A DNA stretch of 50,169 nucleotides from Chloroflexota bacterium (GTDB lineage: Bacteria > Chloroflexota > Dehalococcoidia > JACVQG01), in NCBI GenBank assembly GCA_016210545.1, contig JACQTY010000166.1, forward strand, positions 1 to 50,169, written 5' to 3'. The notes beneath the pieces are model-generated. The model was not told the origin of the DNA, did not search any database, and was given only the letters and a program-made list of their open reading frames with translations. Positions 3,307 through 41,210 of this stretch are shown here, one piece after another. Numbering within the stretch: position 1 is the first letter of the stretch; each line of letters opens with the position of its first letter. Made by a program: the position numbers and the translations under genes.

Positions 3307-4773
3307 GTGACAACCACCAAGGGACCCGCCAGGAGGACGTCCAGAGACGTCCTGCAGTTGGTGGAAAGCAAGAACCTGCGCATGGTGGACCTCAAGTTCA
3401 TCGACCTTCCCGGGACATGGCAGCATTTCTCCATCCCGGCGACGGAGTTGAGCGAGGACCTGTTCACGGAAGGCATCGGGTTCGACGGCTCCAGCATCCG
3501 CGGGTTCCAGAAGATACACGAGAGCGACATGCTCCTGTTCCCCGACCCGACAACGGCCATTGTAGACGTGGGCTGCGACATGCCCACACTGAGCCTGGTG
3601 TGCAATGTCAAGGACCCGATGACCGGCCAGCCGTACAGTCGCGACCCCAGGTATGTGGCCCAGAAGGCGGAAGCCTACCTCAAGTCTACGGGCCTCGCCG
3701 ACGTTAGCTACTGGGGGCCGGAGCTGGAGCACTTCATATTCAGCAGCATCTCCTTCGACCAGACCAGCCACAGCGGCTACTATTTCATAGACTCCGAAGA
3801 GGGTATCTGGAACTCCGGCGAACAGGGCAACAAGAACTCAACCAACGGCCATGACCGCAACCTGGGCTACAGGCCACGCCACAAGGAAGGCTACTTCCCC
3901 GTCCCACCCATCGACAAGCTACAGGACCTGCGCTCAGAGATTGCCCTCAAGATGATAGACTCGGGCATCAACATCGAGGTGCATCACCACGAGGTGGCCA
4001 CCGCCGGTCAGGTAGAGCTGGACATGCGCTATGATACGCTGACCAAGATGGCCGACAATGTCCTGCTATTCAAATACATAACAAAGAACATGTGCCTGAA
4101 AAAGGGGTACACGGCGACATTCATGCCTAAGCCGCTGTTCCAGGATAATGGCTCCGGTATGCACGTCCATCAGAGCCTGTGGAAGAATGGCGTGAACCTT
4201 TTCTACGACGCCAAGGGCTACGCCCAGATCAGCCAGTTAGCCAAACACTACATCGCGGGGTTGCTGGCTCACTCGCCGGCTCTTCTGGCCCTGGCCGCCC
4301 CAACCACCAACTCTTATCGCCGCCTGGTGCCGGGCTACGAGGCCCCCATCAACCTGGTGTACTCGCAGCGCAACCGGAGCGCCTGTGTGCGCATCCCCAT
4401 GTATTCCACCAATCCCAAGACCAAGCGCATCGAGTACCGTTGCCCGGACGCCACGTCCAACCCTTACCTGGCCCTCCCGGCGATGCTCATGGCCGGCCTC
4501 GATGGCATCAAGAGAAAACTGGACCCGGGCACGCCGATAGATAAGGATATCTACGAGTTGCCGCCCGAGGAGAAGGCCAAGATCAAGTCCACGCCCGGTT
4601 CCCTGGGCGAGGTGCTGGACGCCCTGGAGAAGGACCATGCCTTCCTGCTGGAGGGCGGGGTCTTCACGCCGGACCTTATCGAGACCTGGATTGAGTACAA
4701 AAGGAAGAACGAGATGCAGCAGGTGGCCCTGCGGCCGCACCCGTACGAGTTCTACCTTTACTACGACGCCTAG
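3307..4773 (+). CDS. glnA: Glutamine synthetase type I (beta class)
   Basis: FDGSSIRGF, HHHEVATAGQ, TFMPKP, NGSGMHVHQS, RNRSACVRIP, adenylylation-site-like DIYELPPEE; GAGGAGG RBS before GTG. Confidence 0.97.
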   Translation: MTTTKGPARRTSRDVLQLVESKNLRMVDLKFIDLPGTWQHFSIPATELSEDLFTEGIGFDGSSIRGFQKIHESDMLLFPDPTTAIVDVGCDMPTLSLVCNVKDPMTGQPYSRDPRYVAQKAEAYLKSTGLADVSYWGPELEHFIFSSISFDQTSHSGYYFIDSEEGIWNSGEQGNKNSTNGHDRNLGYRPRHKEGYFPVPPIDKLQDLRSEIALKMIDSGINIEVHHHEVATAGQVELDMRYDTLTKMADNVLLFKYITKNMCLKKGYTATFMPKPLFQDNGSGMHVHQSLWKNGVNLFYDAKGYAQISQLAKHYIAGLLAHSPALLALAAPTTNSYRRLVPGYEAPINLVYSQRNRSACVRIPMYSTNPKTKRIEYRCPDATSNPYLALPAMLMAGLDGIKRKLDPGTPIDKDIYELPPEEKAKIKSTPGSLGEVLDALEKDHAFLLEGGVFTPDLIETWIEYKRKNEMQQVALRPHPYEFYLYYDA

Positions 4774-4793
4774 ACCAGGGTAACTGAAGGTTG

Positions 4794-4860
4794 TCATGAC
4801 CGGGGCCGTCCCCGATTGAACCGGGGGCGGCCCCGATCATGACGTGTTAACTCTTCTTTT
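4794..4860 (+). terminator. Hairpin downstream of glnA, probable intrinsic terminator
   Basis: GTCATGACCGGGGCCGTCCCCG-loop-CGGGGGCGGCCCCGATCATGAC followed by a T-rich tract. Confidence 0.65.
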
Positions 4861-5160
4861 CGGGCTTGGCGGCTGGAGTGGAGCATGCTTTTAGGCCACG
4901 GCGATCAACGCCAAAAGGCCAGACGCATCGCCATCCGTGTCTGCAGATACGGGCCGCCTTTCAAACTCAGAGTTTCAATTTGCACGCCGTTGCATGGGGC
5001 TAACCCAGCCATCTGAACGTGGAATGCACCCCGTAAGGGCGGGTTTGAACCTCCCCGACCACATTGCTCCGCTTGCGATAAGCGCCTGACCCCTGTATGA
5101 TAAACGCGGGGGGCAAAACCTCTTTCTGTGGGCAGTAAGAGCCACCCTGCTGGTGTACAC

Positions 5161-7677: not shown

Positions 7678-10074
7678 ATGGATAAGTCACACGGCCGCGA
7701 GATAACGCGGGCCACGCAAGCGATGTTGGCCGTTGCCTTCGCGTTGGTCATGGTGGTATCCTTTTTTTTACCCGCAGGACACGCTCTGGCTGACCAGCCA
7801 GTTTCGGTTGCCAACGACCTTGGGGCGCGGGGTACCGTGCTTATTACTTCCCTGGCTGACGGGCAGACCTGGCCTGCAACTGGAATGAAGATCCCGGTAA
7901 ACGTCTTCTATACGATTGATGGTTACGGAACGCACGGCTCTGGTGAGTATTGGGAGGTCTCAGTTATCGGCAATCTTGGGGACAGTCCCCTATGGTCGGA
8001 TAAGAAGCGGGTTAGCGGCAGCCAGGGTGAGGTTTCTTTTACTATAGACCTGTCCAGATACGGCTCCGAAATAGCCCCTGGCCAGTTTACAGTTAAAGCG
8101 AACCTGTATGCCAACTTTGGCGGCGCAGGCTCATTCCCCAGAACAGTCGCGATGCACAGGATATCGCTCAATATCGTTTCTGGCTCTAAGCCGTCATCAG
8201 GCGGCGCTATCCCGGGAAAGCCGCCGGGGGGATTACCAGGCGGCGCCAACCCGGTGACGCGGCCGCCGCCAAATTCCGGTAATTCGGACTCTGATGGCGC
8301 CAGCCCCATCGTCCCCATCGCCGTCGCAGCGGGTGGGGCCGCGGCCGCCGGGCTTGTCGTCAAGAAAATAATCGATAGGGTGAGGAAGCCAAAGAAACGG
8401 AATAAGCTCCGCTCTAAGGAAGACGAAATTCAAGTTGCCGGGAGTACTGAAGAAGCCGAAGGAAGGCAGAAAACACAACGAATTCAAGATGCTGCCCGGA
8501 AAATTGATGAGGCCGACAGGAGGCAGGAAACAATTGAAGCCTTGCGCAGCACTGACAAGGGGGCGCTCAAGGACCGGGAACAGCTCGACCGGCTGAATAA
8601 GATCAGGAATGCCGTCGCCGATGATATCAGGCTGAGCGAATTTGTGAACGACGCCCATAAGAGCATTGTGGATGGCCACGGCCATGTGGATAAAGAAAAG
8701 CTGGACAAGCTCGAAGGCTTGCTGAAACGGTGGATAGTCAGGGACAAGTTAAAAGTTCATATGCCCGACTACACCACATCCGATGCTTTCTACGATACCG
8801 TCCGGCAGGGTTCCGGGAACATCGTCATAAGAGGGGGCGCCGCCTATCTCAGCGCCGGCTACTCCGAGATGGCGCTGAATCCCATCTCCGCTCTCTCGAC
8901 GATGAGACAGGGAATCATGGATGGCAAATCCAGTCTGAGAGCGGTGGCCGAGGGTTTTGCCCAGTCCTCCTTCGAACTGGCGCTGGGCGAAAGCGGCCGC
9001 CTGTTCAAATACGCCGAGCCTTACCTCGAAAAGATAAGGGAAAGCCGCAATCTCGCCAAACTGGCCGATGCCAGCCCGGACCTGGCTTCCGAAGTGTCCA
9101 CCATCAACCAGTTGGCCAGACAGTCTGACGACCTGGGGAAGTACAGCCGGGACGCCTTCATTAAAAGAACGGATGTGGTACAGTTGGGCAAGACTGCCCC
9201 GGCCAGGCTGGATGACCTGGAGAGGGCGGCCTTGAACCTTAATAACAATCCGGAATTCAGGCAACTGCTTTCCAAGAACCCGGACCTGGTCCCGGGCAGG
9301 GTCAAGGACATCATGGGTTCGGCCAGGCAGAAAGCCTATCAGCAGGCCAGAGACAATGCCATCGGCGATGTCATTAACCAGATGAGCAAAGATGGCGTCC
9401 CGGTAGGCGACAACCCATTTTTTATCAATCAGACCGGCACTCATGCCCGCCCCGGGAACCCCGGCTGGAATCCCGTGAAGAGCGATTTCGACCACACGGT
9501 CAACTTCGGCGAGAAGTACAACAAGTTGTACGAGCAGCGATTGAATACCCATCTGGAAAGCCAGGGGACCTCGGCGTCGGCGCTTGATGTCAACGTGTAC
9601 GGTCCGGGTACCAGCGCACGGGGATCGTATACCGGCGGCGCCACCAAGATCGTCGAGAACTATAACCAGACGACGGGAAGCGATGTTATGATCCGAATCA
9701 GGGACGGCGTACCCACCATCAGCCGGGAAACGCCGCAGACATCCACCTCGCTGCTCTCCACCGTGAAACCGGCAGATTTGCCCAGCGCCAGGTCCAATCT
9801 CCAGAGCTTCTTCGGGAAGAGCCTGGATAAGGGCGGCTCGGTGGAAAACATGTTACAGAATTCCTCCAAGGAGGTCTCGCGCATGAGTGCGCTGGACCGT
9901 GTAGCGTACTTCCAAAAGACGGGGAGAACGGATTACGTGGCGCCTGAAGCCGTCCAGGTGGCCCACATGGTCAAGAACTGGGGGCTGTCCGTTGATGACG
10001 CCATTCATGAGGCGGGGTACAGCGGCAGCAAGATGCAGCTTCTCAGTGATTATAAGAAGTATATGGGGTTGTAA
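7678..10074 (+). CDS. Large single-pass membrane protein: signal peptide, beta-rich ectodomain, TM, helical region, putative nucleotidyltransferase-like C-terminal domain
   Basis: 800-codon ORF with GGAGAGG RBS; signal peptide ending ALA-D; Pro/Gly linker; TM IVPIAVAAGGAAAAGLVV-KK; QTGT..SDFDH..DVNVY. Confidence 0.7.
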   Translation: MDKSHGREITRATQAMLAVAFALVMVVSFFLPAGHALADQPVSVANDLGARGTVLITSLADGQTWPATGMKIPVNVFYTIDGYGTHGSGEYWEVSVIGNLGDSPLWSDKKRVSGSQGEVSFTIDLSRYGSEIAPGQFTVKANLYANFGGAGSFPRTVAMHRISLNIVSGSKPSSGGAIPGKPPGGLPGGANPVTRPPPNSGNSDSDGASPIVPIAVAAGGAAAAGLVVKKIIDRVRKPKKRNKLRSKEDEIQVAGSTEEAEGRQKTQRIQDAARKIDEADRRQETIEALRSTDKGALKDREQLDRLNKIRNAVADDIRLSEFVNDAHKSIVDGHGHVDKEKLDKLEGLLKRWIVRDKLKVHMPDYTTSDAFYDTVRQGSGNIVIRGGAAYLSAGYSEMALNPISALSTMRQGIMDGKSSLRAVAEGFAQSSFELALGESGRLFKYAEPYLEKIRESRNLAKLADASPDLASEVSTINQLARQSDDLGKYSRDAFIKRTDVVQLGKTAPARLDDLERAALNLNNNPEFRQLLSKNPDLVPGRVKDIMGSARQKAYQQARDNAIGDVINQMSKDGVPVGDNPFFINQTGTHARPGNPGWNPVKSDFDHTVNFGEKYNKLYEQRLNTHLESQGTSASALDVNVYGPGTSARGSYTGGATKIVENYNQTTGSDVMIRIRDGVPTISRETPQTSTSLLSTVKPADLPSARSNLQSFFGKSLDKGGSVENMLQNSSKEVSRMSALDRVAYFQKTGRTDYVAPEAVQVAHMVKNWGLSVDDAIHEAGYSGSKMQLLSDYKKYMGL

Positions 10075-13178: not shown

Positions 13179-13760
13179 TCAGCCCCTGGAAGCGGCCCTC
13201 GACAACAGATCCTTCAGTTCCTTGACCGTCTCCTGTCGCCAGGCATCGGCCATGGGCGCGTTGCGCTTGCGCCGCTCCTGGCGCATCTCATCATCGCTCA
13301 GCTTCTTCTTCGACAACTCGGCGGCTATCTCTTCCATAAACTTGGCAGCGACCGCCGGGCGCTCGATCCAGTGGCACAGGGGCTTAAGGTCCTTGTCGAA
13401 GAAGGCTAACACTGGTATCGACTGGAACTTGCCCTGGTTGAGATACAGATTGATGATGTCGGGGTTCTTGTCCCGGTAGAAGACGCGAAGCTCCATGCCG
13501 CTGGCCCGGGCGATCTTGGCGATGACGGCCAGGCCGCGGTGGGCATCGGGGCACCAGTCCTCAACGATGGCGAGCACCTTCACGCCGCCCAACTTCTTCA
13601 CGACGTCCTTGAAGGACCCGCCGTCGGCGTCCGATAGCTTGAAGACGGCCTCGTGCTGTTGGACCAGCTCCCGGTTAGAGGACATCTGGGCCAGGTAGCT
13701 CTCGTAGGTGAACCCCTGCGAGAACCGCTGAGAAGTGATGACCTTTGATGTGTCTGGCAT
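13179..13760 (-). CDS. Thioredoxin-family protein (Thioredoxin_9-like, monothiol WCPDA)
   Basis: EDWCPDA, RDKNPD, QSIPV cis-Pro motif, WIERP; AGGAG RBS. Confidence 0.85.
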   Translation of the reverse strand: MPDTSKVITSQRFSQGFTYESYLAQMSSNRELVQQHEAVFKLSDADGGSFKDVVKKLGGVKVLAIVEDWCPDAHRGLAVIAKIARASGMELRVFYRDKNPDIINLYLNQGKFQSIPVLAFFDKDLKPLCHWIERPAVAAKFMEEIAAELSKKKLSDDEMRQERRKRNAPMADAWRQETVKELKDLLSRAASRG

Positions 13761-31358: not shown

Positions 31359-31994
31359 TTGAAAACCAAACTATTCGTGATAGCTCTAGCCGTCATGCTG
31401 TTGGCAGCAGGGACGGGCGGCGACCTGGCTTCCGCGACGGGCAACGGCGCCCCCAGCGGCGAGCACTATAACCTGAACATCATCGGCGTGCCCAAAGCAA
31501 AGACCGCAGACATGACCAACGACGACGGTCACAGGATCTTTGTGGCCCTGGGGAACAAGACAGGCGATCCGGTCAACACCAAGATAGCTCTGTCCCAGAG
31601 CACAGATGGCACATTCCGTGTGCTGGATGCTAACGGGACCGACGGCAAGGCGGCCTTCCAACTGCCAGCGCCAGGCTCCTACACTATCTGGGCGCGGCCC
31701 CTCGGCCAGCCTGGCGGCCAGGCCAAGGTGACCACCTGCGCCATAGACCCTGTTACCGGCGAGGAAGTATGCTCCACCTCGTTTGAGGTATTTGTCCGCG
31801 GCGCCGGCCAGTCCAAATTCACCGACGTCACCACGAACCTGACCTTCATCGTGTTGGACCCGTCCCTGACCGAGCTAATCACGGCTTGCGACGGCGCCAC
31901 CGTCAGCCTCTTCAGCCCCTGCCTGCAAGGCTATTTCTGGAACTACGCCAACAACGGCCTGAAGCTGCTGCAACTGCGGTTCTACCCCAACTAG
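31359..31994 (+). CDS. Secreted hypothetical beta-rich protein
   Basis: Signal peptide; GNGAPSGEHYNLNIIG; four Cys; ends LQLRFYPN. Confidence 0.75.
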   Translation: MKTKLFVIALAVMLLAAGTGGDLASATGNGAPSGEHYNLNIIGVPKAKTADMTNDDGHRIFVALGNKTGDPVNTKIALSQSTDGTFRVLDANGTDGKAAFQLPAPGSYTIWARPLGQPGGQAKVTTCAIDPVTGEEVCSTSFEVFVRGAGQSKFTDVTTNLTFIVLDPSLTELITACDGATVSLFSPCLQGYFWNYANNGLKLLQLRFYPN

Positions 31995-32195
31995 GGTAAC
32001 CCTCACGGCAGCACTGAATGCGCCGCAGAAGCCGCGAGAGCTCGTGGCTTCTGCGTTCGCGCCGCTGAGGCCTCCCTCAACGGATGTCCTCGAACCAATC
32101 CCCCAACCCAACACGACGCAAAAGATCTCTATCGCCCCCCCCGCTCAGCCGTTGAATAATTTACCAAGACCGTCAACAATCTCTGGCCTTACCTC

Positions 32196-32255
32196 TTGAC
32201 AACCTTCCTTTTCGCCTCTATAATGTTGATGTTTTGAATCAACAATACTGTTGAT
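32196..32255 (+). promoter_or_regulatory. Consensus sigma70 promoter with overlapping inverted-repeat operator
   Basis: TTGACA-17-TATAAT (32196-32224); TGTTGAT-N7-ATCAACA-N4-TGTTGAT (32224-32255). Confidence 0.8.
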
Positions 32256-32256
32256 G

Positions 32257-32354
32257 GCGGCCTGTGACCAATGGTGGGGTAGGTAAGAGAAGGACGCCGA
32301 CCAGACTTACTGCCCGGTACTTCGAGTTTCCTTCGGGAGGCACAGTGAAGCCGC
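32257..32354 (+). ncRNA. Candidate structured cis-regulatory leader RNA
   Basis: GCGGC/GCCGC, CTGTG(A)CC/GGCACAG, GGGTAGGTAAG/CTTACTGCCC and a TCC-UUCG-GGA hairpin; together they would sequester the GGGAGG RBS and GTG start. Confidence 0.45.
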
Positions 32355-32518
32355 AGGAAGAACCAAGAAGGGACATGCCCGAATACGTGCCTGGGTTGCC
32401 TGTTGGTGAGATTGTTAGGGCGCTCAACAGTGTCCGGTTCGGGGAGGTGCGCATAGTCCGTCAGAACGCGAACATCGTACAGATCGACAAGATTGAAAAG
32501 ACGCGGTTCACTCAGTAA
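32345..32518 (+). CDS. YezD / DUF2292 family small protein
   Basis: I..AL..VRFGEV.I..QN..IVQIDK.EK.R signature; GGGAGG RBS then GTG 32345 (alternative ATG 32375). Confidence 0.8.
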   Translation: MKPQEEPRRDMPEYVPGLPVGEIVRALNSVRFGEVRIVRQNANIVQIDKIEKTRFTQ

Positions 32519-32606
32519 CCCGACAACGGGCGATGGCATGGAAAACTCAAGTATTTGGCCTGCTGACCGGACATCTGGAGGCCTGGGCCGAGAGAGGTTT
32601 GTTCAA

Positions 32607-33647
32607 ATGAAGGGTCTCATCAAGGGTAAGCAGGCTTTATCGTTGAGCGCAATACTCGGAATACTGATGGTCATCAGCGCTTGCGCCCCCAGGGAGCCGG
32701 TATCTTCAACACCAGCACCGTCCCAGCCGGCCTCTTCATCTCTGCCGGCGCGGCCATCGGGAACAGGCCCCACGCTAACGGGTAAGATCACTGTGTCCGG
32801 CGCCTGGGCGCTCTATCCTATGATGGTGAAATGGGCTGAGGAGTTCCAGAGGACAAACCCCGGCGTGAAGATCGATGTGTCGGCGGGGGGAGCGGGAAAG
32901 GGAATGGCTGACGCCTTGTCCGGCCTGGCGGACATCGGCATGGTAAGCCGCGAGGTTTACCCTGTGGAGATCGACAAAGGGGCGTTCTACGTGCCATCGG
33001 TGATAGATGCCGTGGTCGCGGTTGCCAGCGCCGGGAATCCGTTCAAAGACGATATCCTGGCCCGGGGCATAGGGAGGCAGGCTTTCACTGGTATCTGGAT
33101 AAACAGGAACGTAGCTAACTGGAGGGACGTTTTCCCGGGGGCAAAGGCTTCCGGCAAGACCGACATTCACGTTTATACCCGCAGCGACGCCGCGGGCGCG
33201 CCGGAGACCTGGGCCAAATACCTGGGTGCGAAACAGGAAGACCTCCTCGGGACCGGCGTCTATGGCGACCCGGGACTGGCCGAGGCAGTGCGGAGAGACC
33301 CGCTGGGGATTGGCTTCAACAACATCAGCTATGCCTATGACATCAGGTCCGGGAAACAGGTGGATGGATTGGTGGCCATCCCCATCGACGTCAACGAGAA
33401 TGGCAAGATCGACCCTGAGGAGGCAGTTTACGGCTCCCTGGACGACATAACCCAGGCAATAGCCAAGGGGGTCTATCCATCCCCCCCGGCCAGAGAGCTC
33501 AATCTGGTGACCCTCCGGGAGTTCAAGGGAGTCACCAGGGAGTTCATCAAGTGGATTCTAACCGAGGGGCAGAAATATGCTCCGGAGGCGGGCTATATTC
33601 CGCTGTCTCAGGCAAGGGTGGATAGCCAGCTTCCCAAACTGCGGTAA
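32607..33647 (+). CDS. pstS: PstS-like ABC substrate-binding lipoprotein
   Basis: Lipobox ISAC; ITVSGAWALYP, AGGAGKG, DIGMVSR, EFIKWIL..GQ..GYIPL. Confidence 0.85.
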   Translation: MKGLIKGKQALSLSAILGILMVISACAPREPVSSTPAPSQPASSSLPARPSGTGPTLTGKITVSGAWALYPMMVKWAEEFQRTNPGVKIDVSAGGAGKGMADALSGLADIGMVSREVYPVEIDKGAFYVPSVIDAVVAVASAGNPFKDDILARGIGRQAFTGIWINRNVANWRDVFPGAKASGKTDIHVYTRSDAAGAPETWAKYLGAKQEDLLGTGVYGDPGLAEAVRRDPLGIGFNNISYAYDIRSGKQVDGLVAIPIDVNENGKIDPEEAVYGSLDDITQAIAKGVYPSPPARELNLVTLREFKGVTREFIKWILTEGQKYAPEAGYIPLSQARVDSQLPKLR

Positions 33648-33674
33648 ACGCGATCTAACGACGTGTTGCGAGGC

Positions 33675-33702
33675 GCAGGGGCGCAGCATGCTGCGCCCCT
33701 AC
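33675..33702. repeat. REP-like palindrome between pstS and pstC
   Basis: GCAGGGGCGCAGCATGCTGCGCCCCTAC. Confidence 0.75.
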
Positions 33703-33729
33703 TGCGGGCAAACCTCGTTCTCCGGGTGA

Positions 33730-34602
33730 GTGTTTGATTTGATATCTAAGAGAAGACTGGCAGACCTCGTATCGACGAGGCTGATGCTGGCGGCGACGGC
33801 CCTTGTCGGCGTCACCGTCCTGTTCATAGCCGTCATGCTTTTCTTGAAAGCCAGGCCTATTCTGGCAACAAACTCGTTGGGCGACCTGTTCCTTTCGTCT
33901 TCGTGGCGTCCCTCCAGGGGCGAGTTTGGCCTGTTCCCCTTTATCATGGGCACCCTGTGGGTGACGGTCCTGGCGGGCATTATTGCTCTGCCGGTCAGCA
34001 TTTTGGGCGCCCTTTACATTACGGAATATGCTCCGCCCAGGGTGCGGGCTGTAGCCAAGCCCGTCGTTGACGTTCTGGCCGGAATCCCGCCGGTAGTGTA
34101 TGGCGTCTGGGGCCTGGTGGCGTTGTCCATCGGCGGCATCGCGATCGGGTTCAACGTGCTGTCCGGCAGCATAGTGTTGGCGATAATGGTAATACCGGTG
34201 ATACTGGGTGTGTCGGAGGAGGTATTCCGGATGGTGCCCCAGGATGTCAAGGAGGCATCTCTGGCAGTGGGGGCCACCAAATGGGAGACAGCCAGGAATG
34301 TGGTCATACGGAGCTCCCTGCCGGGGCTGGCGGCGGCGACGATCCTGGGTTTCTCCCGCGCCTTTGGCGAGACTATGGCGGTGCTCATGGTGGTGGGGAA
34401 CATCGCCAGGGTACCCTCATCGCCGTTGGACCCGGCATACCCCCTGACAGCGCTGATCGCCAACAACTACGGAGAGATGATGTCCATTCCCCTCTACGAC
34501 TCGGCCATCCTGCTGGCGGCCCTGGTGCTGCTTCTGGTAGTGCTGTTCTTCAACATCGCCGCAAGGCTGGTCCTGATAAAGGTCCAGCAGAAGTGGGCCT
34601 AG
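33730..34602 (+). CDS. pstC: PstC-like ABC permease
   Basis: LAGIPPVVYG, EASLAVGATKWET, SRAFGETMAVLMVVGN. Confidence 0.9.
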   Translation: MFDLISKRRLADLVSTRLMLAATALVGVTVLFIAVMLFLKARPILATNSLGDLFLSSSWRPSRGEFGLFPFIMGTLWVTVLAGIIALPVSILGALYITEYAPPRVRAVAKPVVDVLAGIPPVVYGVWGLVALSIGGIAIGFNVLSGSIVLAIMVIPVILGVSEEVFRMVPQDVKEASLAVGATKWETARNVVIRSSLPGLAAATILGFSRAFGETMAVLMVVGNIARVPSSPLDPAYPLTALIANNYGEMMSIPLYDSAILLAALVLLLVVLFFNIAARLVLIKVQQKWA

Positions 34603-35454
34603 ATGCAGCGGAGGAAGACAGAAGAGGCCGTCTTCAAAGGCTTGATGATAGCCTCGGTGTCCATCGTGGCGGCGGGCCTGCTTACCATCGTGGCCGTGAT
34701 AGCCTGGAAGGGTGTTCCGGCCCTCAGCATTGGCATGATAACGCAGACCCCTAAAGGCGGGTTCTACCTGGGCAAAGAGGGGGGCATCCTGAACGCAATT
34801 GTTGGCTCTCTCTACCTGGCCGGGGGGGCTACGTTGCTGGCCCTGGTCATCTCTCTGCTGGTGGCCCTCTTTCTACAGCGGGAATACATAGGTAAGAGTC
34901 GGTGGGCTGGCGTTGTCCGTTTGTCGCTGGACGTCCTGTGGGGGGTCCCGTCCATCGTCTACGGCGCCTTCGGTTTCGTCATTATGGTCTATCTGGGCAT
35001 GAGGGCGTCACTGCTGGGGGGCATTATAGTCCTGACGCTCCTGGAGATACCCATCATGGCCAGGGCCCTGGACGAGGTATTGAGAGCGGTGCCCAGGGAG
35101 TTGAAAGACGCCTCATATGCCCTCGGGACGACGCGTCTGGAGACCAGTTTGAACGTCGTGACCAGGCAGGTATTGCCCGGGATCTTGACCGCCGTGTTAC
35201 TGGCCTTCGGCCGGGGGATCGGCGACGCCGCTTCGGTGCTATTCACCGCCGGATATACGGACCGCATCCCGACCTCATTGCTAGACCCGGTGGCCTCCCT
35301 GCCGTTGGCCATATTCTTCCAGCTTGGCACGCCGTTCCCCGAGGTGCAGGCCCGGGGCTACGCCTCGGCGGTCGTCTTGCTGGTGATTGTACTTCTGATC
35401 GCGGTGGGATCCCGGGTACTGTCCCGGAGACTCACCAAATACGTGGTCAAGTAG
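34603..35454 (+). CDS. pstA: PstA-like ABC permease
   Basis: GGILNAIVGS, GVPSIVYGAFG, DASYALGTTR, GRGIGDAA. Confidence 0.9.
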   Translation: MQRRKTEEAVFKGLMIASVSIVAAGLLTIVAVIAWKGVPALSIGMITQTPKGGFYLGKEGGILNAIVGSLYLAGGATLLALVISLLVALFLQREYIGKSRWAGVVRLSLDVLWGVPSIVYGAFGFVIMVYLGMRASLLGGIIVLTLLEIPIMARALDEVLRAVPRELKDASYALGTTRLETSLNVVTRQVLPGILTAVLLAFGRGIGDAASVLFTAGYTDRIPTSLLDPVASLPLAIFFQLGTPFPEVQARGYASAVVLLVIVLLIAVGSRVLSRRLTKYVVK

Positions 35455-35471
35455 AAACGAGACAGCCGTTA

Positions 35472-36467
35472 ATGAACGACATCTGCCTCCGCATCCACGG
35501 TCTTAACGTCAGCTATGACGGGCACACGGCCCTCAAGAATATATATCTTGACATCCCGCACCGGCAGATCACCGCCATCATCGGGCCATCGGGCTGCGGC
35601 AAAACGACCCTGCTCCGGTCCATTAACCGGCTGATAGACCTCACCGACGGGGCCAAGATCCGCGGCGAGATATGGCTGGACGGACACAACGTGATGAGCG
35701 ACAGGGAGGACGTCACCTCGATAAGGAAAAGGATAGGGCTGATCTCCCAGAAGCCATCCCCGTTGCCCATGTCCATATACGACAACGTGGCCTACGGCCC
35801 TCGCATCCACGGGATGCGGGATAGGAAAGAGCTGGACAAGACGGTGCGTAGCTGCCTGGAGACTGCCGGGCTGTGGACCGAGGTGAAGGACAGGCTCCAG
35901 TCACCGGCAACCAGGCTATCGGTGGGGCAACAGCAACGTCTGTGTCTGGCCCGGAGCCTGGCCGTCAGGCCTGAGGTCCTCTTGTGCGACGAGCCTACAT
36001 CGGCGCTCGACCCGGTGTCGTCGCAGAACATCGAGAATAGGCTCATCGAACTCAAAAAGGACTACACCATCGTGATAGTCACCCATAACATCCACCAGGC
36101 GATGAGGCTCGCCGATTACGTCGTCCATCTCTATCTGGGCGAACTGGTGGAACACGGCCCGGCCAGCGAGGTGTTCCAGAGGCCCAAGCAGGACCGCACC
36201 CGGGCCTATATCAACGGCACTGTCCTTACGAAGCCACGGACCGACGTTGAGATCAACCTGAAGGGGAAGGTGTGCCCCTTGAATTTCGTCTTCGCCAAAG
36301 CGGCGCTGGAGAACCTGGAGATCGGGCAGGTGCTCAAGGTAATAGTCGACTACCCGACGGCGATAACCGAGGTGCCCCGGGCCATGGAGTACGATGGCCA
36401 TAAGGTGCTGGGGGTGAAGCAGCTTAACGAGACCGATTGGGAGGTAATCATACAGAAACGAGAATAG
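35472..36467 (+). CDS. pstB: PstB-like ABC ATPase fused to a C-terminal TusA/SirA sulfur-carrier domain
   Basis: GPSGCGKTT, LSVGQQQRLCLAR, DEPTSALDP, VTHN; continues in frame into INLKGKVCPLNFVFAKAALE..GQVLKVIVD. Confidence 0.9.
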   Translation: MNDICLRIHGLNVSYDGHTALKNIYLDIPHRQITAIIGPSGCGKTTLLRSINRLIDLTDGAKIRGEIWLDGHNVMSDREDVTSIRKRIGLISQKPSPLPMSIYDNVAYGPRIHGMRDRKELDKTVRSCLETAGLWTEVKDRLQSPATRLSVGQQQRLCLARSLAVRPEVLLCDEPTSALDPVSSQNIENRLIELKKDYTIVIVTHNIHQAMRLADYVVHLYLGELVEHGPASEVFQRPKQDRTRAYINGTVLTKPRTDVEINLKGKVCPLNFVFAKAALENLEIGQVLKVIVDYPTAITEVPRAMEYDGHKVLGVKQLNETDWEVIIQKRE

Positions 36468-36559
36468 GGACCACCGTAGCCTCTCCCCCATGGGAGAGGG
36501 AATCCCACCCGCCTCTTGTGCGGCGCCAACATGAAGATGGAAAGGAAGGTCAAGGTCAA

Positions 36560-37285
36560 TTGAGAGACAATGTTAGCCTGGAAGAACTGAAGGAGTTGGT
36601 CAACGGCCTGAACTTCGCCGAGAAGGTCGACCGCTCCCTGAGACTCATCGATGAGGCATACAAGGAGTACGGCGACCGCCTGGTGGTCGCCAACAGCCTG
36701 GGCAAGGACTCCGTGGCAGTATGGCACCTGGCCAAGCGGGTGTCGCCGGAGATCCGCGGCTTCATAGTCACCACCCGCTACAAGCCAAAGGAGACCGTGG
36801 AGTTCATGAACCGGGAGGTCACCCGCTATCCGGAGTTGAAGGTGTTCCGTAACGACGCGCCGATACCGGAAGAGCTTTACCGCACCGACCCCGACCGCTG
36901 CTGCGACGTGCTCAAGGTGCAGCCGGTGCAGTGGGCCATAGAGCAGATGAACGTCGGCTGCTGGGTAACCGGGCTGCGCTGCACCGAGGGCAGGACCCGC
37001 ACCGACTACCGCGAGATCGAGGAGCGGGACGAGGGGCTCATCAAGCTGAACCCCATCCTGCTGTGGCATGAGCGCGAGGTGTGGCAGTACCTGGCCATCA
37101 ACCAGGTGCCGGTCAACCCACTGTACGCCAAAGGGTATCGCTCGCTAGGCTGTCTGCCGTGCACCCGCATCACCAACGACGCCAATGAGCGCGCCGGTCG
37201 CTGGGTGGGTACCAGCAAGTGCGGCGGCGAGTGCGGCATTCATACCCGTCCCTTGAAGGTCGGCGCTTCAAGTCAAAGGAGCTAG
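36560..37285 (+). CDS. cysH: APS/PAPS reductase, [4Fe-4S] (APS-reductase) type
   Basis: SLGKDS, RCCDVLK, WVTGLR, GYRSLGCLPCT, ERAGRW, GECGIH. Confidence 0.92.
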   Translation: MRDNVSLEELKELVNGLNFAEKVDRSLRLIDEAYKEYGDRLVVANSLGKDSVAVWHLAKRVSPEIRGFIVTTRYKPKETVEFMNREVTRYPELKVFRNDAPIPEELYRTDPDRCCDVLKVQPVQWAIEQMNVGCWVTGLRCTEGRTRTDYREIEERDEGLIKLNPILLWHEREVWQYLAINQVPVNPLYAKGYRSLGCLPCTRITNDANERAGRWVGTSKCGGECGIHTRPLKVGASSQRS

Positions 37286-37287
37286 CT

Positions 37288-37623
37288 TTGCAGTTGGACA
37301 AGGTTCGCGAATGGCTGCCTTTTTTCCGGGGGCACGGCATCTGCTCCAAATGTCACCTTCGTGTGGAGTTCACCGGCGTCCCTCCGGGGAATCCCGCCGA
37401 AGAACTCATAGCAAAGGTAGCTGGCAGCCGCAGGTCGGTGTCGTTGCACTGGCTGGAGGAGCGGCTGGCCGATGCCCTCTACTATGCCGAACTGGACAAG
37501 GGCGGCGGGGTGAACGACATCGGAGTGTGGGGCTGCGCTGTGTTCTGCAAGGAGTCGGCCCGAATGATAGGGGAGATGCGACCGGAGTTTGCCGTGGTGC
37601 GAGACGCAAACTCCGGTCACTAG
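37288..37623 (+). CDS. Hypothetical protein, last gene of the operon
   Basis: AAGGAG RBS 6 nt before TTG, immediately after cysH; contains CSKC. Confidence 0.6.
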   Translation: MQLDKVREWLPFFRGHGICSKCHLRVEFTGVPPGNPAEELIAKVAGSRRSVSLHWLEERLADALYYAELDKGGGVNDIGVWGCAVFCKESARMIGEMRPEFAVVRDANSGH

Positions 37624-37662
37624 GGGCGCGGCGCGCCGCGCCCGCGTCGCCCGGGGGCAAAA

Positions 37663-37701
37663 CGAAAGCCCACCTTCTTGAGAAGGTGGGCTTTCTCATT
37701 T
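37663..37701 (+). terminator. Intrinsic terminator of the yezD-pst-cysH operon
   Basis: GAAAGCCCACCTTCT-TG-AGAAGGTGGGCTTTC followed by TCATTT. Confidence 0.8.
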
Positions 37702-37811
37702 CCGGTCACCCCGACTATGTCGCTCGGGGGTTGGCGGGTTCCGCTTCGCTTCACCTTGCCCTCTACAACTGATTATCAACGGAACGCCCGTTGGCGCCCC
37801 CTCTCTCTATG

Positions 37812-37924
37812 ACTCTCTCCCTCGCTCCGCGCGACGGAGTGTTCGATGGGGGCGAGAGAAAACCCTGCGCCCCGGCATCTCCGCGCCCTCTGCGGTGATA
37901 GCCTGTGGCTGATGGACACGGGCC
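37812..37924 (+). repeat. Imperfect direct repeat, copy 1 (copy 2 at 39375-39475), flanking the S8 peptidase gene
   Basis: Shared blocks ACTCTCTCCCTC, CGAGAGAAAA, CCCCGGCATCTC, AGCCTG.GGCT.ATGGACACGGGCC. Confidence 0.75.
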
Positions 37925-37939
37925 AACCTCGGCCCGCCT

Positions 37940-39112
37940 CTACTTGACAGCTTCGAACGCGTTCACCCTCCCCAGATTCGAGGTGAAACCCACGACGGGA
38001 TTGGTAGAAGCCAACACGTGACTCTTCACCTGGACGTTAGTCCAGTCCGGATGCATGGCAAACAAAAGGGCGATTGTCCCCGCCACATGCGGCGCCGCCA
38101 TGGAAGTGCCGGTAAGATAGCCGTAGTTTCTCAGTCCCATGAGGTTCTCATGGTTGGGAAAGGTTGAAAAGATGTCAACGCCGGGGGCGGCCACGTCTAC
38201 CCAGTCTCCGAAGTTAGAGAAAAACGCTTTGACATCGTTGGGGTCAGTAGCGGCCACGGCAATAACATTATCGTAAGAGGCGGGATATACAGGAGAAGAA
38301 CTATTATCGTTTCCGGCCGCTGCTACCAGGACCGCCCCCTTGCTCCAAGCATAGTTTATGGCGCTTTCCAGGGTGCTGGACGTGGCGCTCCCAACGAAGC
38401 TCATGTTGATTACCTTAGCGCCTTGGTCCGCCGCGTAGACTATGCCCTGGGCAATGGAGCTGTGATTTCCCGAACCGCCGTCGTCCAGCACCTTTATATT
38501 CACTAGAGCGGAATCGAAGGCCACCCCTGCCACGCCTTTGCCGTTGTTGGTGGCCGCGGCGGCAATTCCGGCCACGTGTGTGCCATGGCCGAAGAGATCA
38601 TCAACACTGCTGGCGGTGGTGAAGTTCTTGTTGTCCACTATCTTCCCCTTGATGTCGTCATGGTCCTGGTCAATGCCACTGTCCAGAATGGCGATTTTCA
38701 CGTCCCGACTACCTGTGATCAGGTCCCATGCCTCCGGAGCCTGTATTCTGGATATTCCCCATTGCAGGCCAAAAGACACGTCGGTGGAAGTGAGCATCGC
38801 GTGAGCCACGTAGTCCAACTCGGCGAAGGCTACTTCTGGCTCCTTGCCATAATCGTCCCTTTTCCTCTTGGACTCGCCCTTGCCTACCTGTACCACTTGC
38901 ACATCGACGCCGGGGACCACCTGCACCACCCTGCCGCCGTGCTTCCCATGGACCTTTCCTTTGGTAACCTCATCCGTCCCACGGCGAAACTTCACCAGTA
39001 TTTGCCCGGAGTCAAATTCATCCGGGCCTATCTGGCTTTGGCCAGAAGCGGTTACGGGAAGGAGAAGTACAGCTACGAGTACAACTGCCGTCACCCAATA
39101 CCTTCCCCGCAC
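37940..39112 (-). CDS. Secreted S8 subtilisin-like (thermitase-like) serine peptidase
   Basis: Signal peptide and propeptide; AILDSG, HGTHVAG, AAAGN, GTSMAAPHVAG. Confidence 0.95.
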   Translation of the reverse strand: MRGRYWVTAVVLVAVLLLPVTASGQSQIGPDEFDSGQILVKFRRGTDEVTKGKVHGKHGGRVVQVVPGVDVQVVQVGKGESKRKRDDYGKEPEVAFAELDYVAHAMLTSTDVSFGLQWGISRIQAPEAWDLITGSRDVKIAILDSGIDQDHDDIKGKIVDNKNFTTASSVDDLFGHGTHVAGIAAAATNNGKGVAGVAFDSALVNIKVLDDGGSGNHSSIAQGIVYAADQGAKVINMSFVGSATSSTLESAINYAWSKGAVLVAAAGNDNSSSPVYPASYDNVIAVAATDPNDVKAFFSNFGDWVDVAAPGVDIFSTFPNHENLMGLRNYGYLTGTSMAAPHVAGTIALLFAMHPDWTNVQVKSHVLASTNPVVGFTSNLGRVNAFEAVK

Positions 39113-40370: not shown

Positions 40371-41210
40371 TCACTTCTCTATTGGCGCCCCTACCAGATT
40401 GCCCCACTCGTTCCAGGAGCCGTCGTATACTCGCACCTCACTGTTGCCCAGTACGTACTTGAGAACGAACCAGGAGTGAGAGGCGCGCACCCCCAGACGG
40501 CAGTAGGTAATGACTTCTTTGTCTCTGGTGATGCCCAGCGACCGGTATAGTTGCTCCAGATCCTCCAGAGACTTGAACGACCCATCCTCCTTGAGGGCTT
40601 CTTCCCAGGGACGGTGGGCAGCGCCGGGGATGTGGCCCAGCCGCCGTATGCCGGTCTGCGGATGCTCGGGGTGGTCCCGGCCCTCGAACTCCTCTCGCGT
40701 GCGGACGTCGAGTAGCGCAACCGATGGCTTGCCGATAACGCGCAGCACCTCCTCGCGAGTAGCCCGCACGGAAGGGTCAGTCCCTTGGACCTGATAGCGG
40801 GTGGGCGTGACCGAGGTCCTTTTCCGGGTCAGTGGCCGCCCCTCCTTCTCCCATTTTTTCTTGCCGCCGTTGAGCAGTCGCACGTCCTTGTGCCCGAACA
40901 GCTTCATGACGAAGAAGGCCCACGTGGCGTGGCGGTTAAGGCCATCGCCATAGAGTACGACGGCGCTGTCTTCAGCGATGCCCGACCTGGACATAAGGGC
41001 CGAGAACTGCTCCTGGGACGGGACATCGGCCCGTACCGGGTGCTCCAGGTCCTGCTCCCGCTCCCACCCTACCGCCCCGGGGATATGTCCTCGCAGATAC
41101 TCGGAGACGTTTCCGTTCACCTCCACCACGCGAAGGCCGGGGTCATCGAGATGGCGGGCCAGCCATTCCGTCTCTACGATAGCCTCCGGATGTGCATAGC
41201 GGGTCGACAT
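40371..41210 (-). CDS. Tandem-domain rhodanese sulfurtransferase (SseA/TST-like)
   Basis: GHIPGA twice, LLNGG..KW, active-site YCRLGVRA, YDGSWNEWG. Confidence 0.93.
   Translation of the reverse strand: MSTRYAHPEAIVETEWLARHLDDPGLRVVEVNGNVSEYLRGHIPGAVGWEREQDLEHPVRADVPSQEQFSALMSRSGIAEDSAVVLYGDGLNRHATWAFFVMKLFGHKDVRLLNGGKKKWEKEGRPLTRKRTSVTPTRYQVQGTDPSVRATREEVLRVIGKPSVALLDVRTREEFEGRDHPEHPQTGIRRLGHIPGAAHRPWEEALKEDGSFKSLEDLEQLYRSLGITRDKEVITYCRLGVRASHSWFVLKYVLGNSEVRVYDGSWNEWGNLVGAPIEK

Follow-up and report, generated by a model that had tools for sequence, protein, structure and literature searches.

Why does the ATPase of an apparent phosphate importer end in a domain of a sulfur-carrier family? 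The question is raised by a gene on contig JACQTY010000166.1 of a Chloroflexota bacterium (Dehalococcoidia; assembly GCA_016210545.1), positions 1-50,169 of which were analyzed here as one stretch of DNA, referred to below as the window. The open reading frame (ORF) at 35472-36467 on the forward strand encodes 331 residues, is uninterrupted by stops, and joins a PstB-like ATP-binding cassette (ABC) ATPase to a domain of the TusA family. The analyses reported here indicate that this fusion is genuine and conserved in both archaea and Chloroflexota, that a sulfur oxyanion, rather than phosphate, is the most likely substrate of the importer to which it belongs, and, tentatively, that the added domain may gate uptake according to the sulfur status of the cell.

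A complete PstB-type ATPase followed by a TusA-family domain

The ATPase part (35472-36221, +; residues 1-250) is matched by the Pfam model ABC_tran at residues 21-177 (E 4.2e-31) and, over residues 6-250, by the NCBIfam PstB model TIGR00972, which is covered from position 2 to 246 of 248 and gives 340.6 bits, narrowly below its curated cut-off of 343.2. Because positions 11-254 of the 257 residues of Escherichia coli PstB (9k3x_C) align with residues 6-249, the PstB part is complete ahead of the extension. As judged from its motifs it looks active, with Walker A (GPSGCGKT at residue 38), Walker B (VLLCDE at 169, including E174) and the H-loop (VTH at 203, with H205) all intact. The ABC signature at codons 149-153 (35916-35930) reads LSVGQ, whereas that of E. 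coli PstB is LSGGQ; LS[IVL]GQQQR is present in all 46 of the fused proteins described below, and LS[ITAVL]GQQQR in 31 of 33 unfused relatives. The LS[IVLTA]GQ form of the signature is a convenient marker of these Pst-like systems, fused and unfused alike.

Beyond a linker at 36222-36236 (+; residues 251-255), the frame continues as the TusA-family domain, which together with the stop codon occupies 36237-36467 (+; residues 256-331). The Pfam TusA model PF01206 matches residues 260-329 with 64.2 bits (E 1e-17; gathering score 28.6), from position 2 to 70 of its 70 positions. The original prediction had described a complete PstB domain continued in frame by a TusA-like domain with a cysteine codon at 36273, and the Pfam, TIGR00972 and 9k3x_C alignments bear out this description, as does the codon itself, which is TGC at 36273-36275 and encodes Cys268 within KGKVCPLNF.

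An AlphaFold2 model built from an alignment of 120 homologues (mean predicted local distance difference test score, pLDDT, 86.3; predicted template modeling score, pTM, 0.69) consists of two folded parts and a linker. The domain at residues 256-331 is folded (block pLDDT 82-92), and Cys268 lies just ahead of a helix at residues 270-280. The linker, which is about 5-10 residues long and variable in its columns among the 120 homologues, is predicted to be flexible, with residues 250-254 at a pLDDT below 50. Prediction of a complex of two copies of the TusA domain returned a score of 0.05 against a mark of 0.42, a result that counts neither for nor against pairing of the domains.

Conservation and origin of the fusion

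Both PF00005 and PF01206 are present in 120 of the 120 homologous clusters listed (63-81% identity, 326-350 residues), those that are named coming from Chloroflexi, Methanoperedens and Methanosarcinales. In a separate genome scan, which used one genome per species and a profile made from the last 110 residues, we studied the best 80 of 145 confirmed matches (L001-L080) and found the full fusion in at least 46 of them (L001-L046); this number is a lower bound, as the scan depends on exact pattern matches. Archaea, mostly Methanoperedens, account for 42 of the 46 fused loci, and Chloroflexota/Dehalococcoidia for four (L003, L036, L041 and L046). The possibility attached to the original prediction, that a domain-architecture search would find the fusion in this assembly alone, is thus excluded by the clusters listed and by these species-level genomes.

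The TusA domain is 72-76 residues long in 43 of the 46 loci and 68 residues long in L043, and is interrupted in L021 and L046, after 33 and 38 residues, respectively. Residues K264, G265, C268, P269, N271 and F272 (K-G-x-x-C-P-x-N-F) are invariant in all 120 clusters listed, and the same motif is invariant in 45 of 45 sequences of the fused-locus alignment. The median pairwise ratio of nonsynonymous to synonymous substitution rates (dN/dS) of the domain is 0.10 over 484 pairs with 0.1<dS<2 from 42 sequences (266 saturated pairs were dropped, and the gapped or broken sequences of L009, L021, L043, L044 and L046 were left out), and the domain is under purifying selection.

A tree was made of 74 ATPase domains, leaving out L007, L041, L047, L048, L055, L056 and L062, which gave no uninterrupted match. 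A branch supported at 96% in the Shimodaira-Hasegawa-like approximate likelihood ratio test (SH-aLRT) separates all fused proteins, along with one truncated Methanosarcinaceae protein, from the rest, and the window ATPase clusters with the three Chloroflexota fusions of the tree (99%), such that a single origin of the fusion suffices for the ATPase-domain tree. The Methanosarcina-type proteins at L047:7858-8040 and L049:10001-10186 extend through the linker into the first part of the domain (LKGKCCP and LKDKRCP, respectively) before they stop, and look like secondary truncations. The remaining unfused relatives finish at the normal PstB terminus, right after ...RAY[IL]xGxxx. When TusA was sought by tblastn beside the unfused sisters (34 loci, L047-L080), matches at E<1 were obtained in two only, namely the remnant in L047 and, in L048, a contig-end fragment of a fused gene.

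Public databases already hold this architecture, under the name phosphate transport ATP-binding protein. That the fusion is uncharacterized, as had been supposed from the sequence, agrees with the literature searched, which does not extend to subscription journals and in which we found no account of a TusA domain joined to an ABC ATPase. Comparison of the full model with the Protein Data Bank (PDB) by Foldseek, and sequence searches of the PDB, likewise gave no solved ABC ATPase with a TusA domain. The window system is an ABC importer to which a new accessory domain has been added, probably with a new substrate for its family.

A TusA branch linked to sulfate assimilation

The assignment of the C-terminal domain to the TusA family stands, given its PF01206 score, but it is not an orthologue of TusA proper. 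Among solved structures its profile matches TM0983 (1jdq) at 3e-15, the S. thermophila YeeE-YeeD fusion (8k1r, 8j4c) at 6e-11 to 7e-11 and YedF at 1e-9, and E. coli TusA (3lvj) at only 5e-4. The NCBIfam cut-offs are missed in every case, with 44.7 bits versus 79 for YedF (NF008242), 32.9 versus 147.5 for YeeD (NF041048) and 25.3 versus 78 for TusA (NF001423). In place of the CPxP motif of the TusA family the domain has CPxN, the asparagine (Asn271) being one of the residues invariant in the clusters listed.

A search of 1.84 billion representative proteins with the domain profile gave 1536 matches at E <=0.001 and 162 at E <=1e-10; it informs on the other contexts of the domain and not on the number of fusions, with the fused family itself not among the best 150, presumably since its 50%-identity cluster is represented in the library by an unfused PstB. 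The best 150 relatives are mostly 73-130 residues long, and carry CPxT alone in 58 cases, CPxN alone in 55 and CPxP alone in 10, the rest having other or several such motifs. A CPxN domain is found at the C terminus of two-module sulfite reductases (NIR_SIR, 504-864 residues; P0164, P0190, P0221, P0224, P0232, P0263 and P0254), and TusA domains with CPxT or without a CPx motif follow Prok-JAB in P0168, P0202 and P0233. In P0224, JAB, sulfite reductase and a CPxN TusA domain are found together in a single protein. At a fused locus, L040, the binding-protein gene has a divergent neighbor (3939-4982, -) that encodes a histidine kinase composed of an N-terminal TusA domain (CPFP), HisKA and HATPase_c. 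On the basis of the structural matches, the missed cut-offs and the sulfite reductase and JAB contexts, the window domain belongs to a branch of the TusA family that is linked to sulfate assimilation and for which the same literature search returned no biochemical study.

Phosphate or sulfur

Four transporter genes stand in a row, with that of the fused ATPase at the end, an order that is kept in the loci long enough to show it. In the window the first encodes a substrate-binding lipoprotein that is distantly PstS-like (32493-33647, +; likely start ATG 32607; PBP_like_2 E 7e-28), with a signal peptide and the lipobox ISAC; it is followed by genes for a PstC-like permease (33730-34602, +) and a PstA-like permease (34603-35454, +), both with BPD_transp_1. 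The CysH gene (36560-37285, +; likely start TTG 36560, open from TTG 36437) comes next. Its product is an assimilatory reductase of adenosine 5'-phosphosulfate (APS) or 3'-phosphoadenosine 5'-phosphosulfate (PAPS), with PAPS_reduct at E 1.8e-40 and 166.6 bits versus a cut-off of 154 for the phosphoadenylyl-sulfate reductase model NF002537, which is passed; it contains CC...CxxC and ECGIH, which we take to be marks of the iron-sulfur APS-reductase type. CysH adjoins the operon in all four Chloroflexota loci with enough flanking sequence, i.e. the window, L003, L036 and L046.

Association with PhoU and the Pho regulon is typical of pst operons. PhoU is found in none of 233 flanking ORFs (88 beside unfused relatives and 145 beside fused genes), and in none of the window ORFs scanned, which comprise those of at least 180 residues and a few chosen smaller ones. 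The binding protein lies far below the PstS cut-offs (95.4 versus 206.6 bits for TIGR02136, and 68.0 versus 205 for a second model), its best solved relative being the PstS 4gd5 (E 9e-18), and its pocket motifs differ: where 4gd5 has SGSTS, GSSAG and REDGSGT, the window protein has SGAWA, GGAGKG and RSDAAGA. The corresponding patterns SGA[WF]ALYP, AGGAGKG and YTRSD[AS][AC]GA are invariant in 36 binding proteins from fused loci and 22 from unfused loci. PstS binds and selects protonated phosphate through hydroxyl side chains and an aspartate, whereas the sulfate-binding protein holds its ligand without an acidic group. In the proteins studied here, residue 154, the acidic position that follows SR, varies and is commonly alanine.

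The unfused sister operons have binding proteins that are 46-61%, and ATPases that are 50-68%, identical to those of the window, and sulfur genes adjoin 11 of 33 unfused or truncated sister loci. Immediately downstream of the operon, L060, L064 and L067 encode a PAPS_reduct-family protein and CysN/APS kinase. PAPS_reduct adjoins the operon together with a CysN-like GTPase in L053 and is likewise present in L052; L049 has ATP sulfurylase and a PALP-type pyridoxal 5'-phosphate (PLP) enzyme, L047 a CysH-like tblastn match and PALP, and TauE adjoins the operons of L056, L066, L070 and L073. In both L047 and L049 the truncated gene has a CysH-like gene and a gene for a PLP enzyme as neighbors, with the ATP sulfurylase confirmed in L049. 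Regulators of the Rrf2 type occur at the sister loci L056, L072, L075 and L078.

Sulfur neighbors are also present at archaeal fused loci (L006, L008, L013, L031, L034, L037, L039 and L040, with a weak TusA match in L027). They include MetX/MetW at L013, L037 and L040, a PLP enzyme at L034, stand-alone TusA genes near the operon at L006, L008 and L031, and a ThiS-family gene with a PLP enzyme directly upstream at L031:4379-6168 and L039:4638-6193, a setting that may point to sulfur incorporation by way of a carrier protein. An HdrD/DsrK-like iron-sulfur protein is encoded downstream in L031 and L039.

The phosphate label is doubtful because the pocket motifs of the binding protein are changed, PhoU was not found in the flanking ORFs and the sister operons adjoin sulfur genes; the LS[IVLTA]GQ signature of the whole subfamily, in place of the LSGGQ of PstB, points the same way. 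These neighbors and relatives suggest that sulfur, not phosphate, is what the pump takes up, and its most likely substrate is a sulfur oxyanion (sulfate and/or thiosulfate) destined for assimilation. The phosphate transporter of the original prediction is therefore probably not what the operon encodes, whereas the link to sulfur assimilation, also proposed there, is supported by gene context and by the CPxN domains on sulfite reductases. The models of the SulT sulfate importer are not matched at their cut-offs, with 126.5 bits versus 342.75 for the sulfate ATPase (TIGR00968), 35.6 and 47.2 versus 246.1 for CysT, and 20.6 and 16.7 versus 329.1 for CysW.

A possible sensor of sulfur status

We give a probability of about 0.4 to the reading that the operon encodes a Pst-type importer of a sulfur oxyanion that is gated by a cysteine-based sensor of sulfur status. 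In such a system the lipoprotein binding protein, the two permeases and the ATPase would bring in the oxyanion, while the TusA-family domain would act, via Cys268, as a covalent sensor of the sulfur status of the cell. Sulfane sulfur or a sulfur-oxyanion adduct would load Cys268 as a persulfide or thiosulfonate, the loaded pair of C-terminal domains would lock the ATPase dimer in an inactive state, and uptake would halt. The mechanism would be a cysteine-based counterpart of the trans-inhibition exerted by the C-terminal domains of MetN, ModC and CysA. Its substrate, the modification of Cys268 and any effect on ATPase activity are inferred, as are the persulfidation, the feedback on uptake and the hand-over of sulfur to enzymes suggested in the original prediction. 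Consistent with a sensor are the location of the domain at the C terminus of an importer ATPase, which is the site of known regulatory domains; the use of a TusA domain as the input of the histidine kinase beside the same operon in L040; and the recurrence of the CPxN-type module along a single pathway, on sulfite reductases and, in P0224, together with JAB.

Several points weigh against this reading, with respect both to sensing and to the substrate. The known regulatory domains of importer ATPases bind the transported ligand non-covalently and have other folds, and the nearest solved relatives of the domain, TM0983 and YeeD, favor a catalytic or carrier role. The relative placement of the two domains in the model is uncertain, given the pTM of 0.69, mean pLDDT values of 63-86 across the five models and the linker below 50. 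The PstC cut-off is passed and PstB and PstA fall short of theirs by 3-4 bits; the R-x-D of the PstS motif REDGSGT is retained in the binding protein; and a sulfur-related gene is present at only eight of the 42 archaeal fused loci, counting flanking ORFs that were scanned or matched.

A wider proposal, which we consider doubtful, is that Pst-type operons with an LSxGQ ATPase and a binding protein of the SGA[WF]ALYP / YTRSD[AS][AC]GA type would constitute a sixth, so far unrecognized family of prokaryotic sulfate/thiosulfate uptake systems, beside SulT, SulP, DASS, CysP and CysZ, and that the ATPases of Methanoperedens and of some Dehalococcoidia would have gained a TusA-type cysteine switch that shuts the pump upon persulfide or thiosulfonate loading.

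Alternative roles

Of the other explanations, capture of sulfur in the manner of YeeD survives best, although we regard it as unlikely. Thiosulfate, imported alone or along with sulfate, would be split at Cys268 into sulfite and a persulfide, rendering uptake irreversible and directly feeding CysH, a sulfite reductase or cysteine synthases, as in the sulfur hand-over of the original prediction. The argument from homology is better for such a role than for the sensor model, in that the best solved matches of the domain are TM0983 (3e-15) and the YeeE-YeeD fusion (6e-11 to 7e-11), versus 5e-4 for E. coli TusA; the invariance of Cys268 is also in keeping with capture, as is a tandem-rhodanese sulfurtransferase gene 4 kb downstream (40371-41210, -), which scores 139.5 bits versus a cut-off of 250 with the 3-mercaptopyruvate sulfurtransferase model. 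According to the accessible part of PMC11073785, YeeD is essential to a thiosulfate importer, decomposes thiosulfate in a cysteine-dependent manner and is naturally fused to YeeE, but its motif there is CPxP and not the CPxN of the window domain, which also scores far below the YeeD cut-off. The neighboring genes sit uneasily with capture too, because the APS reductase here, and CysD/CysNC and ATP sulfurylase in the sisters, act on sulfate, which is unreactive with a thiol, and the unfused sisters work without the domain and, in the 34 loci searched by tblastn, without a separate TusA gene beside them. In type I importers the C-terminal side of the ATPase faces away from the membrane exit, and it is on this side that the domain is attached, by a short linker, an attachment point that suits capture less well.

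A quite improbable alternative is that the domain is a tethered relay, brought to the ATPase by a fusion of the Rosetta-stone kind. It would carry persulfide between sulfite reductase, ThiS-like carriers and PLP-dependent sulfhydrylases, and would be fused for co-expression or co-localization with no effect on transport. A rhodanese-like role of SirA is predicted in the accessible text of Iyer, Burroughs and Aravind 2006, and a relay would fit the CPxN domains on NIR_SIR sulfite reductases, the TusA domains on Prok-JAB proteins (P0168, P0202, P0224 and P0233) and the ThiS and PALP genes directly upstream in L031 and L039. The stand-alone TusA genes near the operon in L006, L008 and L031 can be read in two ways: they place sulfur carriers in the same neighborhood, but, being of the CPxP type and adjacent to the fused gene, they suggest that other proteins already serve as the carrier. 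A tether to a membrane complex would, moreover, be a poor position for sulfur shuttling, and ThiS, JAB and E1 were not seen among the window ORFs scanned.

It is likewise improbable that the pump is not a sulfur importer at all, but carries phosphate or another oxyanion (molybdate, tungstate or selenate), with the TusA domain tying this nutrient to sulfur, molybdenum-cofactor or selenium metabolism. The scores of the ATPase (340.6 bits versus 343.2), of the PstC-like permease (245.7 versus 196.45, TIGR02138) and of the PstA-like permease (189.0 versus 193.45, TIGR00974) speak for a phosphate transporter, as do the 48% identity of the ATPase to its E. coli counterpart PstB and the public name of its relatives, phosphate transport ATP-binding protein; set against these are the lack of PhoU in the 233 flanking ORFs, the low PstS scores and changed pocket motifs of the binding protein, and the sulfate-activation genes directly downstream in sister operons. 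The best NCBIfam match of the domain is to the selenium-metabolism protein YedF, but at 44.7 bits it is under the cut-off of 79, and no selenium genes were seen among the neighbors scanned. Molybdenum is hinted at by single genes, i.e. FdhD in L057, MFS_MOT1 in L008 and Nitro_FeMo-Co in L004. We set the selenium and molybdenum links low, as only isolated neighbors favor them.

Finally, an assembly or sequencing artefact, in which a lost stop joined separate pstB and tusA genes, is rejected: decay or errors do occur in these drafts, the domain being interrupted in L021 and L046 and L043 lacking its last 8 residues, but fusion in 120 of 120 clusters listed and in 46 genomes, a full-length fused domain in 43 of these 46 independent genomes, a dN/dS of 0.10, an in-frame linker without a stop remnant and the lack of a TusA gene behind the unfused sisters leave it virtually no room.

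Other features of the window and of related loci

A promoter-like site at 32196-32224 (+), TTGACA-17-TATAAT, agrees with the sigma-70 consensus at 12 of 12 positions; it is the sole match in 31900-38000 and shuffled sequences average 1.6 matches, so that it is a consensus match only. It is followed by a DUF2292 (YezD-like) gene (32375-32518, +) of about 47 codons from an internal ATG, within an ORF listed from GTG 32264, that gives 42.5 bits with PF10055 (cut-off 22). A 57%-identical copy of this gene is located at L003:3291-3431, between CysH and the binding-protein gene. An Rfam search of the whole window gave no match, and so no known riboswitch ahead of the operon.

Downstream of CysH lies an ORF (37219-37623, +; 134 residues as listed) which is conserved by tblastn, with 61% identity over 132 residues in L046 and 38% over 95 residues in L003. 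It has no Pfam or NCBIfam match, and its best score in the ESM Atlas, 0.81 with none at or above 0.9, is uninformative; it may be an unrecognized part of the sulfur operon. Elsewhere in the window there is a Thioredoxin_9 gene (13179-13760, -).

Several related loci have insertions or additional genes. In L040 the binding-protein and permease genes are separated by an inserted gene for a YeiH-like membrane protein, and in L014 the operon is interrupted, after the PstA-like gene and ahead of that of the fused ATPase, by an ORF with RRXRR and HNH endonuclease domains (8398-9333) that is probably a mobile element. Upstream of the operon, mostly directly ahead of the binding-protein gene, an ORF of 98-172 residues without a Pfam match recurs in 11 Methanoperedens-type loci (L004:5740-6069 and ten archaeal loci), and may encode a regulator.

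Implications

Methanoperedens archaea oxidize methane with nitrate or metal oxides. If the operon imports sulfate or thiosulfate, a gap in the sulfur supply of the methane oxidizers would be closed, a new family would be added to the five known families of sulfate transporters, and many entries named phosphate transport ATP-binding protein would need renaming. In the accessible part of Yu et al. 2018 (PMC6286981), the sulfate transporters of such methane oxidizers are called putative only. A sulfur-carrier fold with its cysteine on an ABC motor would tie nutrient uptake to the downstream pathway and its state in a new way, and, if the sensor model is correct, ABC importers would gain their first case of trans-inhibition that is covalent and dependent on sulfur status. 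That this type of TusA domain recurs on a histidine kinase as well as on JAB proteins and sulfite reductases suggests a common signaling or relay module of assimilatory sulfur metabolism.

Comparison with known systems

With E. coli PstSCAB (ATPase PstB; structures 9k3s and 9k3x) the window operon shares the gene order and the set of a binding protein, two permeases and an ATPase. In addition to the 48% identity, Foldseek gives template modeling scores of 0.92-0.95, normalized to the target, between the ATPases. The window system differs in the extra TusA-family domain, in LS[IVL]GQ rather than LSGGQ, in the pocket motifs, in having no PhoU among the flanking and window ORFs scanned and in having sulfur-assimilation neighbors.

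A TusA module with an essential conserved cysteine, cytoplasmic and in natural fusions to a transporter, is also described for YeeE/YeeD (TsuA/TsuB) in the accessible part of PMC11073785. The transporter of the window, in contrast, is an ABC importer with BPD_transp_1 permeases, no YeeE-type protein being encoded among the window ORFs scanned, and its TusA-family domain is attached to the ATPase instead of being docked on a membrane protein, has CPxN and scores under the YeeD cut-off. For the ThiS-JAB-E1 sulfate-assimilation operons, the accessible text of Iyer, Burroughs and Aravind 2006 describes SirA as a protein of its own and does not mention a fusion to a transporter ATPase. SulT (Sbp/CysP-CysTWA) shares with the window system the proposed substrate class and the transporter superfamily, but is a different family by the TIGR00968, CysT and CysW scores; none of the five sulfate transporter families listed in the accessible part of a review (PMC5840216) is Pst-type.

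With respect to architecture, the fused ATPase resembles MetN (with its C2 domain), ModC, MalK and CysA, all of which have an additional folded domain directly after the nucleotide-binding domain. Foldseek aligned MetN with the model over 343-355 columns, including the C-terminal domain, and also listed CysA (1z47). The fold of the added domain nonetheless differs from that of MetN, the alignment having a root-mean-square deviation of about 12 Å, and the conserved feature of the window domain is a single cysteine.

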